The notes beneath the pieces are model-generated. The model did not search any database, had not been told where the DNA came from, and was given only the letters and a program-made list of their open reading frames with translations. Below, one piece after another: positions 1-10,551 of a stretch of 64,000 bases of DNA. The DNA is taken from positions 21,045 through 85,044 of the forward strand of contig JARRMM010000005.1 in NCBI GenBank assembly GCA_037386005.1, given 5' to 3'. The position numbers and the translations under genes are program-made. This DNA is from Deinococcales bacterium. Its GTDB lineage: Bacteria; Deinococcota; Deinococci; Deinococcales; Trueperaceae. Position 1 is the stretch's first letter, and each line of letters begins with the position of its first letter.

Positions 1-1329
1 CCGCCAGGAAGAACGGCAGGTCGAGCAGCCCCAGCCCCATCAGCCAGCCGGCAGCAGCGGCGCCGACCGCGGACGGCATCCGGAAGGAGAGAGCGTTGAG
101 GCTGCCCGCCAGCCCACGTCGCTCGTCGCGTACCAGCGCCATGCTGAACGCCTGGCGGGTGCCGGCGGTGCCGCGGTTGAGGATCGACCGGAAGGCGTAG
201 AGCGCTGCCGCCCAGGCGTAGGCGGGCATCAGGGGCATGGCCAGGAGCGTGAAGACACCGACGGTGCGCGGCCCCACGATCGAGCGCACGACGCCGACCC
301 GGGCGCCGACCTCGCCCGTGACCACCGAGGAGATGGCGGTGAGGAAGAAGGTCAGTGCGTAGACCGAGCCGATGGCTTCCGGCCCGACTCCGAAGCGCAC
401 CGCGAACCAGTAGGGCATGAGCGGTCCGATGAGACCGATGCCCAGCGCGTTCACCGAGTTCACGGTGGACAGGAGCGTCAGCGCGACGTTCTCGCGTCGC
501 CGTAGGGCGGCTGCCTCGCCGGCCCCGCTGAAAGCGGGCGCGGCACGCGGGGGCGGGGTGGTGGCGGTCGCCGCGGGAGCGGGGCCAGCGGGGAGAGGGC
601 CAGCGGCGCGGCGGCCGGCGGCCGGCACCTCCGCGGGTTCCGACGGCACGGCCGTCGGCGCTGCCGAGCCGCGGGCCGCGGCACGTCCGCCCGACCTGCG
701 CCCCGCCGGGGCGCCTCCTGCAGCCGGCCGATCATCCAGGTGGTCACGAGCGCCGCCACCAGGTTGAGCACGAACAGCGGCTCATAGGCGGTGGGTCCGG
801 GAAGGAACCGAGCGAACAGCGGCACCGCCGAGCCGATCAACGTGCCGAGGCCCATACCGAAGAAGCCCAGCGCCGCGTTGAGGCTGAACGCCTGGCTCCG
901 GCCCGTGGGCCTCACGCTTGCGGCCAGCCACGCCTGCTCGACCGGAGCGAACGGTCCGGCGGCGCCGTTGGCGCCGCGCCCGTACCCCAGGAGCACGGCC
1001 GTCAGCACCAGCACCCAGGAGTGCGGGAAGACGACCACCGCCAGGGCACCGACCGCCGACGCGAGCTGGTAGCCCATCAGGAAGGGGCGCCGTCCGAAGC
1101 GGTCGCTGAGCACGCCGGCGGCGAGCAGCATCGCGGCCCCGACGAGGCCGGTGGCCCCCAAGAGCAGCCCGATCGGAGCGGCACCCCAGCCCAGCGCCTT
1201 GAGGTAGAGCACGAAGTCCACCACCAGCGCGCCCTGTGCCATGCTGCGCAGGAATCGCGCCGACATCAGGCCGCGGGCGACCGGGTCGAGGTTGCGCCAA
1301 CCGCGGGGGGTGTAGGGGGGAGCGCTCAC
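1..1329 (-). pseudogene. MFS transporter with reading frame broken in the central loop; 3' part runs off the window start
   Basis: ORF 478-1329 (GTG start) gives six TM helices (..GVLSDRFGRRPFLMGYQL..) then an R/P-rich tail and stop at 478. Hand translation of the minus strand from ~720 to base 1 in another frame gives ..FSGAGEAAALRRRENVALTLLSTVNSVNALGIGLIGPLMPYWFAVRFGVGPEAIG.., the second six-TM half. A net 1-nt insertion or 2-nt deletion is needed between ~480 and ~720. Confidence 0.6.
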
Positions 1330-4268: not shown

Positions 4269-5129
4269 TCAGCTGCTGCGGTACACCCTGCGGAAGTAGA
4301 ACACCACCAGCAGCATCGTCATGAACAGCAGCACGTAGGCAAGGGCCGAGGCCTGGGCCAGGTCCAGCCCGCGGAAGGCGGTGCGGTAGATGAAGTACGC
4401 GAGCAGGTCGGTCGAGGAGCCCGGACCGCCCTTGGTCAGGACGTAGATCAGGTCGTAGGTGCGCAGCTCGATGATGCTCTGCAGGATGAGGACGATCCCG
4501 ATCACCGGGCGGAGGATGGGGAGCGTCACCAGGAAGAAGCGCTGAAAGGCGGAGGCCCCGTCCACAGTGGCCGCCTCCAGCGGCTCCAACGGCATGCTCC
4601 GAAGGCCGGCGAGGAGCACCAGCGTCACCAGCGACACCTGTTGCCACACGTCGATCGTCCCGACGACGAACAGGGCGTACCTCGGGTTGCCCAGCCAGTC
4701 GATGCGGGGCAACCCGAGGCGCGTCATGGCGAAGTTGACGATCCCCAGTTCGGGGTGCAGGATCATCTTCCAGATCAGAGCGACGCCGACGGGCGAGATG
4801 AGCATGGGGATGCTCAGGACCGAGTAGTAGACCTCGCGTCCCGGCACGGGCTGGTGCAGCAGCACCGCGAACACCAGCCCCAGCACCAGGCTGAGGCCCA
4901 CGGTGAACGCCGTGTAGACCGCGGTCAACCAGATGGCGTTCACGAAGTACGGGTCCTGGAAGCCGCGGACGTAGTGCTGCAGGCCCACCCACGGCTCGAA
5001 GCGGGGGGCCAGGAAGGAGTAGCCGGAGAACGACACCACCAGCGCATACCCCAGCGGGAAGGCGATAATCCCCACCAGGACGAGGATGCCCGGTAGCGCG
5101 AACTGCCAGCCCGTCCGTCGGCGTCGCAT
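4269..5129 (-). CDS. Carbohydrate ABC transporter permease (MalF/UgpA-like)
   Basis: Six-TM binding-protein-dependent permease; ..GLRSMPLEPLEAATVDGASAFQRFFLVTLPILRPV.. is the EAA loop motif. Confidence 0.88.
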   Translation of the reverse strand: MRRRRTGWQFALPGILVLVGIIAFPLGYALVVSFSGYSFLAPRFEPWVGLQHYVRGFQDPYFVNAIWLTAVYTAFTVGLSLVLGLVFAVLLHQPVPGREVYYSVLSIPMLISPVGVALIWKMILHPELGIVNFAMTRLGLPRIDWLGNPRYALFVVGTIDVWQQVSLVTLVLLAGLRSMPLEPLEAATVDGASAFQRFFLVTLPILRPVIGIVLILQSIIELRTYDLIYVLTKGGPGSSTDLLAYFIYRTAFRGLDLAQASALAYVLLFMTMLLVVFYFRRVYRSS

Positions 5130-5140
5130 CCCTCACCTCG

Positions 5141-6465
5141 CTACGGCAGGTTGGCCCGCTGGAAGAGCTGTTGGAGCGCCCTGGCGGCGTCCTGCGTCGC
5201 CTGATCCGGGCTCTTGGTCCCGGCCGAGGCTTCGGAGATCTCGCGGCCCAGGTCCTCCTCCATCTGCGCCGTGTACTGGAACAGCGGCACGCTCTTGGCC
5301 GTCTCGACGATGGTCGCGACGTCCGCGTAGTACGGGTACTTGGCCAGCACCTCGGGGTCGTTGAAGGCGTCGGTCCGGGTGGGCGCGTGCCCCTGCAGGG
5401 CGCGGGCCTTCACGATCGCCGGCGACTCGACCCACTGGATGAACTGCCAGGCGGCGTCCTTGTGGGCGGAGTTGTGCGGGATGCCCCAGCCCCAGCCGCC
5501 CGCTACCCCGTGCCCGCCGGGCATCGGCGCCAGCGCGACCTTGCCGGCCACGTTGGGGCAGTCCTGCGCATTGTCGAGCTGCGGCAGCATCCACCAGTAA
5601 CTCACGAAGCTCCAGGCCTGGCCCTGGCACATGATGCGGTAGGTGTCGTCGAGGTTGAAGTTGAGGGCGCCGGTGGGTGCGGCCGTTTGGATGTTGCGCG
5701 CGTAGAGCTGCATGGCCTGACGGCCCTCGGGGCTGTCGAGGGTGACGTTCCAGTTGCCGTCGGTGAAGTCACCGCCCAGCCCGAAGAGGTAGTTCGCGAA
5801 CTCCAGGAAGTTGGGGTCGCCGCGTTGTCACCGCCCAGCCCGAAGAGGTAGTTCGCGAACTCCAGGAAGTTGGGGTCGCCGCGTTGCCCCTGCATGGCGA
5901 CGCCCGCCATGTCGCTGTGCTGCGCGATGAAGACGCTGGTGTCGACGTAGTCCTGGACGGTCGCGGGGAGCTGGAGTGGGCGACCGAACTGCTCCTGGTA
6001 GGCCTGCTGCAGGGCGGGGTCCTGCAGCACGTCGGTGCGGTAGATCAGCCCCATCGCGTAGTTGTACATGGGGATCATGTACAGCGTGTCCTGGTAGTAC
6101 CCGACCAGGGCGAGCATCGACGGTAGGTAGGGACTGAGGTCGAAGTTGGTGCGGTCGACGTACGGTTGCAGAGGCTCGAGCCACCCCGCCGCCGGGAACT
6201 CACCGGCCCAGAGGAAGTCGACCTGCAGGAAGTCGTAGGTATTGGTGGGCGACAGCATCTGGGTGACGAGCTTGTCGTGCATGGCGCTGTACTGCACGAT
6301 CTCGAACTCGACCTTGATGCCGGTCTGCTGTTCGAACTGCGGCAGCAGGTCGGCGATGATGTGCGTCTCGGGCACGTCCTCCATGAGGGCGCGGAGCGTC
6401 ACGTTCTGGGCGAACGCCGCGCTCAGGCCGAGCACGAGACAGGCGATCAGCCAACGGAAACGCAT
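5141..6465 (-). pseudogene. Sugar ABC substrate-binding protein disrupted by a 59-bp tandem duplication
   Basis: N-part (ORF 5602-6540, real start ATG 6465 after AGGAGGAGG; signal peptide MRFRWLIACLVLGLSAAFAQ) and C-part (ORF 5141-5713) are in different frames. Removing one repeat copy gives continuous ..FANYLFGLGGDFTDGNWNVTLDSPEGRQAMQLYARNIQ.. Confidence 0.85.
5768..5886. repeat. Perfect 2 x 59-bp direct tandem duplication inside the SBP gene
   Basis: TCACCGCCCAGCCCGAAGAGGTAGTTCGCGAACTCCAGGAAGTTGGGGTCGCCGCGTTG at 5769-5827 and again at 5828-5886, counted base by base. 59 is not a multiple of 3. Confidence 0.95.
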
Positions 6466-6544
6466 GGGGTACCTCCTCCTAGGGTCCCAGGGGTGGATGC
6501 GTCGGTTCCGTTCCGGATGTGGTTCGGCGAGTCGCACCACCTCC

Positions 6545-7405
6545 TCACTTCACGGCGCCGAAGGTGAGGCCCGCCACGAGATAGCGATCGACGACGCGAG
6601 CGAGCAGGATCACCGGGAGGATGGAGAGCACCACGCCGGCGGCGACCTTCGAGAAGAGCACGCCGCGCTGCGTGATCTGCGCGGCGAGCACGACCGGGAT
6701 GGTCTGGGTCTCCAGCCCGGAGAGCAGGAGCACGAACAGGAACTCGTTCCACGCCAAGATGAACCCCAGCACGCCCGCGGCGAACAGCCCGGGCGTGGCG
6801 ACGGGGACGATGACGCGGAAGAACGCCACCATCGGCGTGGCGCCGTCGACCAGGGCCGACTCCTCCAGCTCGCGCGGGATACCCTCGAAGAAGCCCATCA
6901 GCATCCAGCTCATGAAGGGGAGTCCGAAGGCCAGGTAGGCGATGACGATCCCGGGCAGGGTATTGACCAGTCCCCAGCTACTGAACAGCGAGAACAGCGG
7001 CAGCGCCAGCGCGATCGGCGGCAGCATCTGCGTGGCCAGCACGCCGAAGCGGAGGCCCTCTCCTCCGGTGCGATAGCGCGCCAGCGCGTAGCCGAGCAGC
7101 GCCCCGATGGGGAGCCCGACCAGCACGGTGGCGGACGCGACCGCGAGGCTGTTGATCATGGCCCGTCCGAAGGGGCCATGCAACAGCTCGGCGAAGTTCC
7201 GCAGCGTGACGGGCCCCCACCGCGGCGGTAGCACGTAGGCCAGATTCTCGGGGAGCAACGCCGTGCGCAGGATCCAGAGGAGCGGGAGCAGGAAGAAGAG
7301 CGAGACCAGGAGCAGCGCGGCATGGGTGAGCACGATGCGTCGCGCCTGGCGGCGCCGGCTCCGGCGCGAACGCTGCGTACGTGGGAGCGCCGTCATGTGG
7401 TGCAT
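6545..7405 (-). CDS. Carbohydrate ABC transporter permease (MalG/UgpE-like)
   Basis: MHHMTALPRTQRS..LLLVSLFFLLPLLWILRTAL.. with EAA loop GIPRELEESALVDGATPMVAFFRVIVP. The 443-aa track ORF carries a spurious N-terminal extension; ATG 7405 or 7396 after GGAGGAG. Confidence 0.85.
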   Translation of the reverse strand: MHHMTALPRTQRSRRSRRRQARRIVLTHAALLLVSLFFLLPLLWILRTALLPENLAYVLPPRWGPVTLRNFAELLHGPFGRAMINSLAVASATVLVGLPIGALLGYALARYRTGGEGLRFGVLATQMLPPIALALPLFSLFSSWGLVNTLPGIVIAYLAFGLPFMSWMLMGFFEGIPRELEESALVDGATPMVAFFRVIVPVATPGLFAAGVLGFILAWNEFLFVLLLSGLETQTIPVVLAAQITQRGVLFSKVAAGVVLSILPVILLARVVDRYLVAGLTFGAVK

Positions 7406-8220
7406 GCTCCTCCGTTGACCTCGATCACCTCGCCCGTCAGGAAGTCGGCGTCCTGGGAGGCCAGGAACGCGACCACCCTCGCCACGTCCGCGGGGAGCTC
7501 GAGACGCCCCAGCGGGGTCTGGGCCACGTACTCGCGCACGACCTCCCCGGGCTCGAGGCCGCGCAGGGTCGCTTCCCAACCGACCTCGCGCTCCTGCATG
7601 GCGGTCCGTACGTAGCCTGGGTTGACGGCGTTGACCGTGATGGCATCCCTGGCGAGCTCCTTGGCCGCGGCCTGGACGAGGCCCACGACGGCGAACTTGG
7701 AGGCGGAGTAGTGCACCAGCAGCGGGGCCGCGATGCGCGCCGCCATCGAGGCCGTGGCGATGATCTTGCCGCGGAGCGCGTGGCCCTCCCGTATCGGCTG
7801 CTCCACCATGTGCCGGGCGAAGGTCTGGAGCGTGAGGAAGGTGCCCCGCGCATTGACGGCGAAGGTGTGGTCCCACTCTTGATCGGTGAGGTCGAGGAAG
7901 CGGTTCATGGTCGACACGCCGGCGTTGGCCAGCAGCACGTCGACGCGTCCGTCAACGCTGACGACGCGCTGCGCGAGGGACTCCAGGCTGTCGCGCCGTG
8001 TCACGTCGACCCACGCGCTCCGGGTGTCGTCGCCCAGGGCGCGGGCGGCCTCCTCGGCGCCACGCTCGTCCAGATCGGCGACCCAGACGCGGGCCCCTCG
8101 GGCGGCAAGCTCGGTCGCGCTGGCACGGCCGATGCCGGTCGCGCCTCCGGTGACGACGGCGATCAGGTCTTGAAGGGGGGCCTCGTGGCGTCTCTCGTTT
8201 CCCGCAGCGGTATCGGACAT
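7393..8220 (-). CDS. SDR family oxidoreductase
   Basis: TGxxxGxG motif VVTGGATGIGRA and catalytic YSASK. Confidence 0.88.
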   Translation of the reverse strand: MSDTAAGNERRHEAPLQDLIAVVTGGATGIGRASATELAARGARVWVADLDERGAEEAARALGDDTRSAWVDVTRRDSLESLAQRVVSVDGRVDVLLANAGVSTMNRFLDLTDQEWDHTFAVNARGTFLTLQTFARHMVEQPIREGHALRGKIIATASMAARIAAPLLVHYSASKFAVVGLVQAAAKELARDAITVNAVNPGYVRTAMQEREVGWEATLRGLEPGEVVREYVAQTPLGRLELPADVARVVAFLASQDADFLTGEVIEVNGGACTT

Positions 8221-8239
8221 GGTCTGCGCTCTCCCTCCA

Positions 8240-9754
8240 TCACCGCGCCAACCGCGGGTACAGGTCCCGGAGTCGCGTGTAGGTGTCGCGATAGACGCCG
8301 TAGAGGCGGTCGTAGCGCGCGCTTGCCCGCTCGTCGGGAAGGAAGCGCCGGTCGAGGTGGACGTAGCGCTCGACGGCGGACCAGTCGTCCAACCTGCCGC
8401 TACCGATCCCGGCGGCGATCGCCGCGCCCAGGCTCGAGCCGGGATGGTGCGCCACCCGCTGCACCGGCATCTTCAGCACGTCTGCGGCGATCTGCAGCCA
8501 CAGGTCGCTCCGAGCGCCGCCGTCAGCGGCGAGCACTCGCCGGATCGGCAGGCCCAGCTCGGCCAGCACGTCGACGTGGTGCCGGAAGCCGTACGCCACG
8601 CTCTCCAGTGCCGCGCGGTAGAGGTGGTGGCGCGTGTGATGGAGGTCGAGCCCCAGCAGCGTGCCGCGCGCCGCCGGGTCGTGGAGCGGCGTCTTCTCAC
8701 CCAGGAAGTAGGGGAGCAGCACGAGGCCATCGGAGCCCGCATCGAGCCCAGCTGCGAGCTCGTCGAGGAGCTCGTAGGCGGACCGGCCTTCGCGCCGGGC
8801 ACGCTCGCTCTCCTCGGCGCAGAACTGCTGGAGGTACCACTTCACCAGGCTCCCGCTGGTGGCCATGCAGCCGTTGAGGTAGAACTTCCCGGGCACGAGG
8901 TGATGGTCGATGAACAGGCGGCGGTCGGTGACGAGCCCGTCGAGGCTCAGCAGGATGTCGCCGGCGCCGCCGAACTTGATCACCAGATCGCCGTCGGCGT
9001 AGGCCGTCGTGGCGAAGGCGGAGGCGACGTGGTCGGCCGCGCCCCCGACCACCGGCGTACCGCTGGCCAGTCCGGTGGCTTCCGCGGCAACGGGGTGGAC
9101 GACGCCGATGACGTCGTGGGCGTCGTGCACGTCGGGGAGCTGGTGGCGCACGAGGCCGGCGAGCTCGAGCAGCTCGTCGGAGAAGCGCCCCTGTCGGAGG
9201 TCGTACAGCCCCGATTCGAGGGCCCAGTTGCGCTCGACGCCGCGGACGCCGGTCAGGCGGAAGTTGATGTAGTCGTACGAGCCGAGCAGCGTCGACAGCC
9301 TGTCGAGCGTGTGGGGCTCGTGCTTGCGTAGCCAGCGCGCCTTCGGGGCGACCACCTGCTGGTTGATGCTTCCGCCGGTGAGCCGGAAGAAGCGGTCCTC
9401 GTCGTAGCCTTGCTTCAACTCCAGGATCTCGGTCCCGGTGCGGGCGTCGTTCTGCTGGATGCTGCGGCGCAGCGGCACGCCCTCACCGTCGAGCAGCACC
9501 ATGGCGGGGACCATGCCGCTGACGCCGACCGCGGCGACGTCGCCGCCCCGGGCGCCGGCGCGTTCCAGTAGCGCCCGCGTGACGGCGCAGCTGTTCTCCC
9601 ACCACTGCTCGGGGTCCTCCTCGGCCCACGTCGGTTCCTCGCTGTAGAGCGTCGCCTCGCGCTCCGCCTCGGCGACGATGCCGCCGTGGAGGTCCGTCAG
9701 CACGCCCTTGGTGAGGGTGGTTCCGATGTCGAGGCCCAGCAACAGCTCGCTCAT
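8240..9754 (-). CDS. FGGY-family carbohydrate kinase (xylulokinase-like)
   Basis: N-terminal LGLDIGTTLTKGVL ATPase motif, ~500 aa, typical FGGY N and C domains. Confidence 0.85.
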   Translation of the reverse strand: MSELLLGLDIGTTLTKGVLTDLHGGIVAEAEREATLYSEEPTWAEEDPEQWWENSCAVTRALLERAGARGGDVAAVGVSGMVPAMVLLDGEGVPLRRSIQQNDARTGTEILELKQGYDEDRFFRLTGGSINQQVVAPKARWLRKHEPHTLDRLSTLLGSYDYINFRLTGVRGVERNWALESGLYDLRQGRFSDELLELAGLVRHQLPDVHDAHDVIGVVHPVAAEATGLASGTPVVGGAADHVASAFATTAYADGDLVIKFGGAGDILLSLDGLVTDRRLFIDHHLVPGKFYLNGCMATSGSLVKWYLQQFCAEESERARREGRSAYELLDELAAGLDAGSDGLVLLPYFLGEKTPLHDPAARGTLLGLDLHHTRHHLYRAALESVAYGFRHHVDVLAELGLPIRRVLAADGGARSDLWLQIAADVLKMPVQRVAHHPGSSLGAAIAAGIGSGRLDDWSAVERYVHLDRRFLPDERASARYDRLYGVYRDTYTRLRDLYPRLAR

Positions 9755-10551
9755 CGAAGCGTCGTCACCCGCTCCATGAGGCGCTGGACGCGTTCCCGGT
9801 CGACCGGATTCCAGGTGACGCCGCCCACCTTCAAGCTGGTCCCCACGATCGCGGCATCGGCAACGGCCAGGATGTCGGTCACGTTCTCGAGACGCACGCC
9901 GGTGTTGGCGATGACGGGCACGTCGGGAAGGGCCTCCTTGACCTCGTCCAGCTGCGCGAGGCCCACGCTCTCACCGGTCATGGGCCCGGAGACGCAGACC
10001 GCGTCGGCCAGGCTCGCGAACACCGCGCTGCGGGCCTTCGCAGCCAGGCTGCGTTCGCCCAGGGGGGCCGCGAACTCGGCGTTGATGTTGTAGAACAGCA
10101 GAGCCCGCGCGTCGAGGGCCGCCTTGAGGCGGAGCGCGGCTGCGGCGTCGGGCTCCCACAGGCCCATGTCGGAGTCGTAGACCCCGGTGAAGACCTCGCG
10201 CACGAAGCTCGCGCCGGTGGCATGGGCGAGCGCGATGGAGGCAGGCGGATCCCACAGGTAGTCGACCCCGAAGGGAACGGTGACCCGTCCACGGAGCTCC
10301 GCGACCACCGCCGCCATGGCCGCCAGGCTCTCGGGTGCGGCACGGGTCAGGTAGGGCCGGTCGCCCTCGTTGCCGAACATCACCGCGTCCACCCCGCCCC
10401 CCTGCAGCGCCTCGAGGTCGGCGGCGACAGCGTCCACGATCGCACGCATGCCGCCCTGCCGGTCGTAGAGCGGGCTACCCGGGAGGGGCGGAAGGTGGGC
10501 CATGGCGATGATGGGCTTGGCGACGCCGAACAGACTCCGGAACGCTTCCAT
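9751..10551 (-). CDS. BtpA/SgcQ family TIM-barrel protein
   Basis: ..PIIAMAHLPPLPGSPLY..GGVDAVMFGNEGDRPY.. matches the BtpA family pattern. 4-nt overlap with the downstream kinase gene. Confidence 0.75.
   Translation of the reverse strand: MEAFRSLFGVAKPIIAMAHLPPLPGSPLYDRQGGMRAIVDAVAADLEALQGGGVDAVMFGNEGDRPYLTRAAPESLAAMAAVVAELRGRVTVPFGVDYLWDPPASIALAHATGASFVREVFTGVYDSDMGLWEPDAAAALRLKAALDARALLFYNINAEFAAPLGERSLAAKARSAVFASLADAVCVSGPMTGESVGLAQLDEVKEALPDVPVIANTGVRLENVTDILAVADAAIVGTSLKVGGVTWNPVDRERVQRLMERVTTLR

Follow-up and report, generated by a model that had tools for sequence, protein, structure and literature searches.

The Importer Locus

The window, i.e., the whole stretch of 64,000 nt analysed here, carries on its minus strand, between 4269 and 10551, a gene cluster that reads in the order BtpA/SgcQ-family protein, FGGY kinase, SDR dehydrogenase, MalG-like permease, binding protein and UgpA/MalF-like permease. 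The BtpA/SgcQ-family protein (9751-10551) matches the Pfam family BtpA as well as NCBIfam TIGR00259, the latter above its cut-off. The FGGY sugar kinase (8240-9754) is recognised by Pfam FGGY_N and FGGY_C and gives a xylulokinase-like NCBIfam match below cut-off, and the SDR dehydrogenase (7393-8220) gives a polyol-dehydrogenase-like NCBIfam match that is likewise below cut-off. The binding-protein gene lies between two ABC permease genes whose products both match PF00528: the MalG-like permease upstream (6545..7396, minus strand), with GlcU and MalG-like NCBIfam matches below the family cut-offs, and the UgpA/MalF-like permease downstream (4269..5129, minus strand), with UgpA and GlcT-like NCBIfam matches that also fall below them. 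No ATPase gene was found in the cluster at 4269-10551, and the reconstituted binding protein described below gives no NCBIfam equivalog match. By its sequence features, the locus is an ordinary CUT1-type cluster for the uptake and catabolism of a sugar or polyol.

A 59-nt Tandem Duplication in the Binding-Protein Gene

As deposited, the binding-protein gene contains a perfect tandem duplication of a 59-nt unit at window 5768-5886 (contig C5, genome coordinate 26812). Tandem Repeats Finder (TRF) reports a period of 59, 2.0 copies, 100% matches, no indels and a score of 238, and a base-by-base comparison at an offset of 59 gives 60 identities out of 60 consecutive positions starting from window 5768. 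Copy 1, with the sequence GTCACCGCCCAGCCCGAAGAGGTAGTTCGCGAACTCCAGGAAGTTGGGGTCGCCGCGTT, occupies 5768..5826 and is identical to copy 2 at 5827..5885, so that the whole two-copy array spans 118 nt and the one-copy and two-copy forms are 59 bp apart. The two copies are directly adjacent with no Ns between them, and the junction at 5826/5827 reads ..GGGGTCGCCGCGTT then GTCACCGCCCAGC.. or, in another rendering, ..GTCGCCGCGTT then GTCACCGCCCAG... The repeat boundary is ambiguous by 1 nt, as base 5886 (G) adds one further matching base. The sequence-only reading of this DNA, which placed the copies at 5769-5827 and 5828-5886, described the same repeat in a different phase, and its claim of exactness agrees with both the TRF result and the offset comparison. 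On sequence grounds, chance cannot be the source of an exact match of 60 nt. A whole-genome search found the unit solely at window 5768-5886, on which ground a dispersed repeat or mobile element was rejected. No microhomology longer than 1 nt is present at the site, and no repeat-prone sequence marks it.

The duplication divides the solute-binding-protein gene into two parts that are read in different frames. The N-terminal part (5602..6465, minus strand) starts at the ATG at 6465 with a signal-peptide-like sequence, MRFRWLIACLVLGLSAAFA; its frame is correct through ..FANYLFGLGGD and then runs into an out-of-frame tail ending at a stop at 5602. Residues 1-213 of this product (P0001) are identical to those of the intact protein P0002 from a sibling genome. 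The C-terminal part (5141..5830, minus strand) continues in another frame through ..QRGDPNFLEFANYLFGLGGDFTDGNW.. to the stop at 5141, and tblastn maps residues 194-421 of the collapsed protein to this interval at 100% identity. Called mechanically from its first ATG, the ORF of the C-terminal part covers 5141-5713 and encodes 190 aa. When one copy of the unit is deleted in silico, an uninterrupted protein of 421 aa is obtained, which matches SBP_bac_1 (PF01547) over residues 40-330 with E = 7e-39 and 135 bits, where the gathering cut-off is 26, covering profile positions 13-304 of 307 in one stretch, and which also matches SBP_bac_8 (PF13416). The sequence-only account of the gene was right on each of these points: reading the minus strand from the ATG at 6465 reproduces its frameshift after ..FANYLFGLGGD with a stop at 5602, the rest of the protein that it placed in the 190-aa ORF at 5141-5713 is indeed intact, with a clean frame to the stop at 5141, and the seamless product that it expected from a one-copy deletion is the 421-aa protein with its SBP_bac_1 match. 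Within the locus, this is also the sole binding-protein gene of the importer, as it had claimed. Across the genome, no paralogue of the binding protein is more than 28% identical to it, and a compensating paralogue was rejected because the nearest candidate is at most 28% identical.

A public collection already carries a 212-aa fragment of this gene, P0122 (MGGDFTDGNW..), which corresponds to window 5141-5779 on the minus strand and was called on this contig (102,209 nt). Its first residue falls on the CTG codon at 5777-5779, which lies within copy 1. This truncated entry would owe its existence to the false frameshift in the deposited sequence.

Conspecific Genomes and Homologues

Two conspecific metagenome-assembled genomes (MAGs), whose accession prefixes are consecutive, are 99.1-99.7% identical to the window locus at the DNA level: GCA_037386085.1, represented by the 52.7-kb contig JARRML010000044.1 (hereafter L041), and GCA_037386155.1, represented by JARRMK010000099.1 (L044). 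Both carry the 59-nt unit once, within an intact gene of 421 aa. BLAST of the window against each yields two HSPs, both ending at window 5827, whose stretches of sibling sequence have 60 nt in common. In a protein search, the L041 protein (P0002, 421 aa) matched the window protein in its collapsed form at 100% identity, and the L044 protein, also of 421 aa, differs at two residues. Both loci keep the gene order of the window; in L041 this includes permease, binding protein and permease, with a 283-aa gene called at the position of the MalG-like permease.

Within the binding-protein gene, the window and L041 differ at about 30 nucleotides. Since the two proteins are identical, all of these differences are synonymous, which indicates that the gene is under purifying selection. 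Some 20 of the substitutions, all synonymous, are concentrated within 270 nt at window 5435-5708, in the C-terminal half of the gene, where L044 is like the window. This strain-variable patch, of a kind that fragments metagenome assembly graphs, lies 60 nt from the duplication. No strain switch that could mark a contig boundary was found at the copy-to-copy junction, as the window shares the haplotype of L044 to the left and to the right of it.

The collapsed protein is 55-83% identical to binding proteins of about 420 aa from Trueperaceae, Thermus, Meiothermus and other bacteria, where such homologues are common. This marks the organism as a Trueperaceae-like bacterium within the Deinococcota, of 71% GC. 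Almost all of the close homologues are 416-435 aa long, apart from a few that are truncated, and an insertion is seen in none of them. Recurrence of duplications in the binding-protein gene was found neither in the two MAGs nor among these homologues. A degenerate 36-nt pattern designed for the junction or for the single-copy state had no match in JGI metagenome contigs, and exact look-ups of both flanking permeases, made in search of independent assemblies of the same sample, also gave no match.

Another split gene lies in the window. The gene of an MFS transporter at 478-1329 (minus strand) is interrupted: compared with L041, 31 nt are missing from the window at about 689, beside four mismatches. 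L041 in turn lacks the 43 nt corresponding to window 916-958 and is split there instead, and a sequence that includes both segments forms one ORF of 475 aa. That the gaps differ between the MAGs suggests local assembly errors in both; on the sequence comparison, strain-specific deletions or gene decay would be the alternative.

Exact Tandem Duplications Elsewhere in the Genome

A genome-wide scan found only three exact tandem duplications with a period of at least 35 nt in the whole genome. In addition to the 59-nt duplication at C5:26812, which breaks the solute-binding protein and whose collapse restores the SBP_bac_1 match, a 68-nt duplication at C246:2945-3080 frameshifts an acetate kinase gene, and a 35-nt duplication at C46:14715-14784 frameshifts a response-regulator/pyridine-nucleotide-disulphide-oxidoreductase (flavin reductase) gene. 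Collapse of the former yields a match to positions 2-392 of 392 of the Acetate_kinase profile in one stretch, and collapse of the latter a match to positions 1-291 of 291 of Pyr_redox_2, again in one stretch. The three lengths (35, 59 and 68 nt) are all 2 mod 3, and all three duplications are gene-breaking and N-free, with a boundary microhomology of at most 1 nt each. Looked up as exact sequences, neither the collapsed acetate kinase nor the collapsed reductase had a match. For shorter non-triplet exact duplications (13-31 nt), ORF length carries no information, since long spurious ORFs occur in every frame at 71% GC.

Draft Status and Unmerged Overlaps of the Assembly

The genome comprises 252 contigs totalling 3.56 Mb at 70.9% GC, interrupted by 36 runs of 1-120 N. 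It is a scaffolded draft built from short reads and almost certainly a metagenome-assembled genome. At three of the N runs, the left flank ends with exactly the sequence with which the right flank starts: 25 nt at C32:7088-7139 (52 N), 19 nt at C115:16847-16873 (27 N) and 11 nt at C36:21650-21696 (47 N). Judged by these flanking sequences, the three runs are scaffolding gaps between contigs that actually overlap. Overlaps were also left between the ends of separate contigs. Four pairs (C92/C7, C63/C198, C49/C115 and C35/C107) share exact end overlaps of 119 nt, and five further exact contig-end overlaps are found at C63/C165, C79/C95, C79/C13, C38/C211 and C217/C121 (66, 44, 44, 39 and 34 nt, respectively). 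Several joins are thereby open to curation. The lengths of the three gene-breaking duplications, 35, 59 and 68 nt, lie within the range of these unmerged overlaps.

Overlaps of 119 nt at contig ends are characteristic of a de Bruijn graph whose final k is 119 or 120. As no paper naming these accessions was found, the assembler is deduced from the overlap lengths alone. The default k list of MEGAHIT includes both 59 and 39 as steps, and in an IDBA-UD ladder of 20 they are k-1 steps. The presence of 59 in the k ladder fits the final overlaps of 119 nt; 35 and 68 fit no such step, so that this point is suggestive. Comparable defects are described for IDBA-UD and CLC assemblies, in which Ns are put in at the scaffolding step although the flanks overlap (Chen et al. 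2020, Genome Res 30:315, PMC7111523). The same study reports scaffold ends that overlap perfectly by n or n-1 bases, n being the largest k (Chen et al. 2020, PMC7111523).

Origin of the Duplication

It appears highly probable that the 59-nt duplication is an assembly artefact, namely an unmerged overlap between contig ends, and not a feature of the organism. The gene in the organism would then most likely hold a single copy of the unit and encode, as its sequence predicts, an ordinary CUT1-type sugar/polyol-binding protein of 421 aa. What can be observed directly is the exact duplication, the scaffolded state of the draft, the other unmerged overlaps and the single copy in the conspecific genomes; it is from the last three of these, together with the two additional duplications and the occurrence of 59 as a k step, that the artefact reading is drawn. 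In the proposed scenario, two contigs, assembled from short metagenome reads with a de Bruijn graph, would each have ended within the binding-protein gene with 59 nt in common. A scaffolding or gap-closing step would have set both contigs adjacent to each other on the basis of read-pair links, and the overlap would have been left unmerged, with the contigs written end to end, generating both the exact 59-nt duplication and a false frameshift. Copy 1 (5768..5826) would accordingly represent the end of the left-hand contig and copy 2 (5827..5885) the start of the right-hand contig. We infer that the scaffolder made the join at 5826/5827 and that the junction between the copies is spanned by no read. 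The duplications on C246 and C46 may have the same origin; the 68-nt duplication on C246, in particular, is probably a join artefact of the same kind. An assembly artefact had been the fallback explanation in the sequence-only reading, and the other unmerged overlaps, the two further duplications and the one-copy conspecific MAGs make it the best-supported one.

Some observations count against an artefact. The N-free duplications differ from the overlaps that are flanked by Ns, and a joining step that adds zero Ns is surmised. Of the three lengths, only 59 fits the k ladder, with 35 and 68 falling outside it. Finally, the haplotype is constant across the junction, which thus lacks an independent mark of a contig boundary.

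A real and very recent duplication would give an identical consensus sequence. According to this explanation, the 59-nt unit was duplicated by an event such as replication slippage or misaligned repair and became fixed or dominant in the sampled population, leaving a young pseudogene of a dispensable importer. The deposited sequence does carry the duplication, and neither the copies nor the downstream part of the gene are mutated, which fits a very young event; moreover, the frame-breaking 31-nt gap by which the MFS gene at 478-1329 differs from that of the sibling MAG makes gene decay in this lineage conceivable. However, a mutational origin would require three independent and flawless frame-breaking duplications in unrelated conserved genes, including that of acetate kinase, within one 3.56-Mb draft in which older, diverged duplications of such a kind are absent from coding frames. 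The assembly demonstrably leaves contig overlaps unmerged, both conspecific MAGs hold one copy, and all substitutions in the gene relative to the sibling strain L041 are synonymous. A real mutation is an unlikely alternative to the unmerged overlap.

The reversible on/off lesion put forward in the sequence-only reading, by which the duplication would arise and collapse often so that subpopulations alternate with and without the only binding protein of the importer, finds no support and is very improbable: the recorded structure has the right form (exact, frame-breaking and with a seamless revertant), and an exact in-ORF tandem duplication can revert precisely by a mechanism documented for Streptococcus pneumoniae capsule genes (Waite et al. 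2001, 2003, cited in PMC4243769), yet there is no sign of recurrence, with one copy in either conspecific MAG and no insertion among close homologues, the site has no repeat-prone sequence and at most 1 nt of microhomology, two unrelated genes of the same assembly, which also leaves overlaps unmerged, hold like duplications, nothing gives cause to expect phase variation in a sugar importer of the cytoplasmic membrane, and the duplication would first have to be real.

The significance of an unmerged overlap at this site is mainly one of data quality. The deposited MAG would split at least three good genes by false frameshifts (those of the binding protein, acetate kinase and the response-regulator/flavin reductase), and annotation pipelines would call such split genes pseudogenes or fragments. 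Conclusions on gene loss, genome decay or phase variation drawn from the deposited genome would be misleading. A genuine duplication would amount to a single recent loss-of-function mutation in a transporter that is not essential, and this, too, would be ordinary.

Comparison with Known Systems

The reconstituted locus resembles CUT1 ABC importers in the PF01547 and PF13416 matches of its binding protein and in the two flanking BPD_transp_1 permeases present in the window. It differs from them in that the window cluster has neither an ATPase gene nor an NCBIfam equivalog match.

The closest precedent for a functional duplication is the phase variation of the pneumococcal capsule. Spontaneous duplications in cap3A, cap8E and tts lead there to reversible phase variation (Waite et al. 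2001, 2003, cited in PMC4243769). The likeness is that an exact tandem duplication disrupts the frame of an ORF and that the gene would be restored if one copy were lost precisely. In the pneumococcus, however, many different duplications recur in one and the same gene, both states are obtained from a single culture and selection on the capsule fluctuates, whereas here the relatives are one-copy. By analogy, a real, spontaneous and precisely reversible duplication that coexists with the one-copy form and switches a sugar/polyol importer off and on in an environmental Trueperaceae bacterium could be imagined, with only a very slight chance of being correct; it would bring a mechanism of the pneumococcal capsule type to a nutrient-uptake gene of a free-living organism.

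Likeness is also found to the negative-gap or local assembly errors described by Chen et al. 2020 (PMC7111523), with which the duplication shares its main characters, i.e., an exact duplicate that is shorter than the final k and that lies in a scaffolded draft. The explicit example given in that paper has Ns between the duplicated flanks, whereas the copies here abut without an N. The present assembly also has Ns placed between exactly overlapping flanks, as well as end overlaps of k-mer length, as in the assemblies described by Chen et al. 2020.
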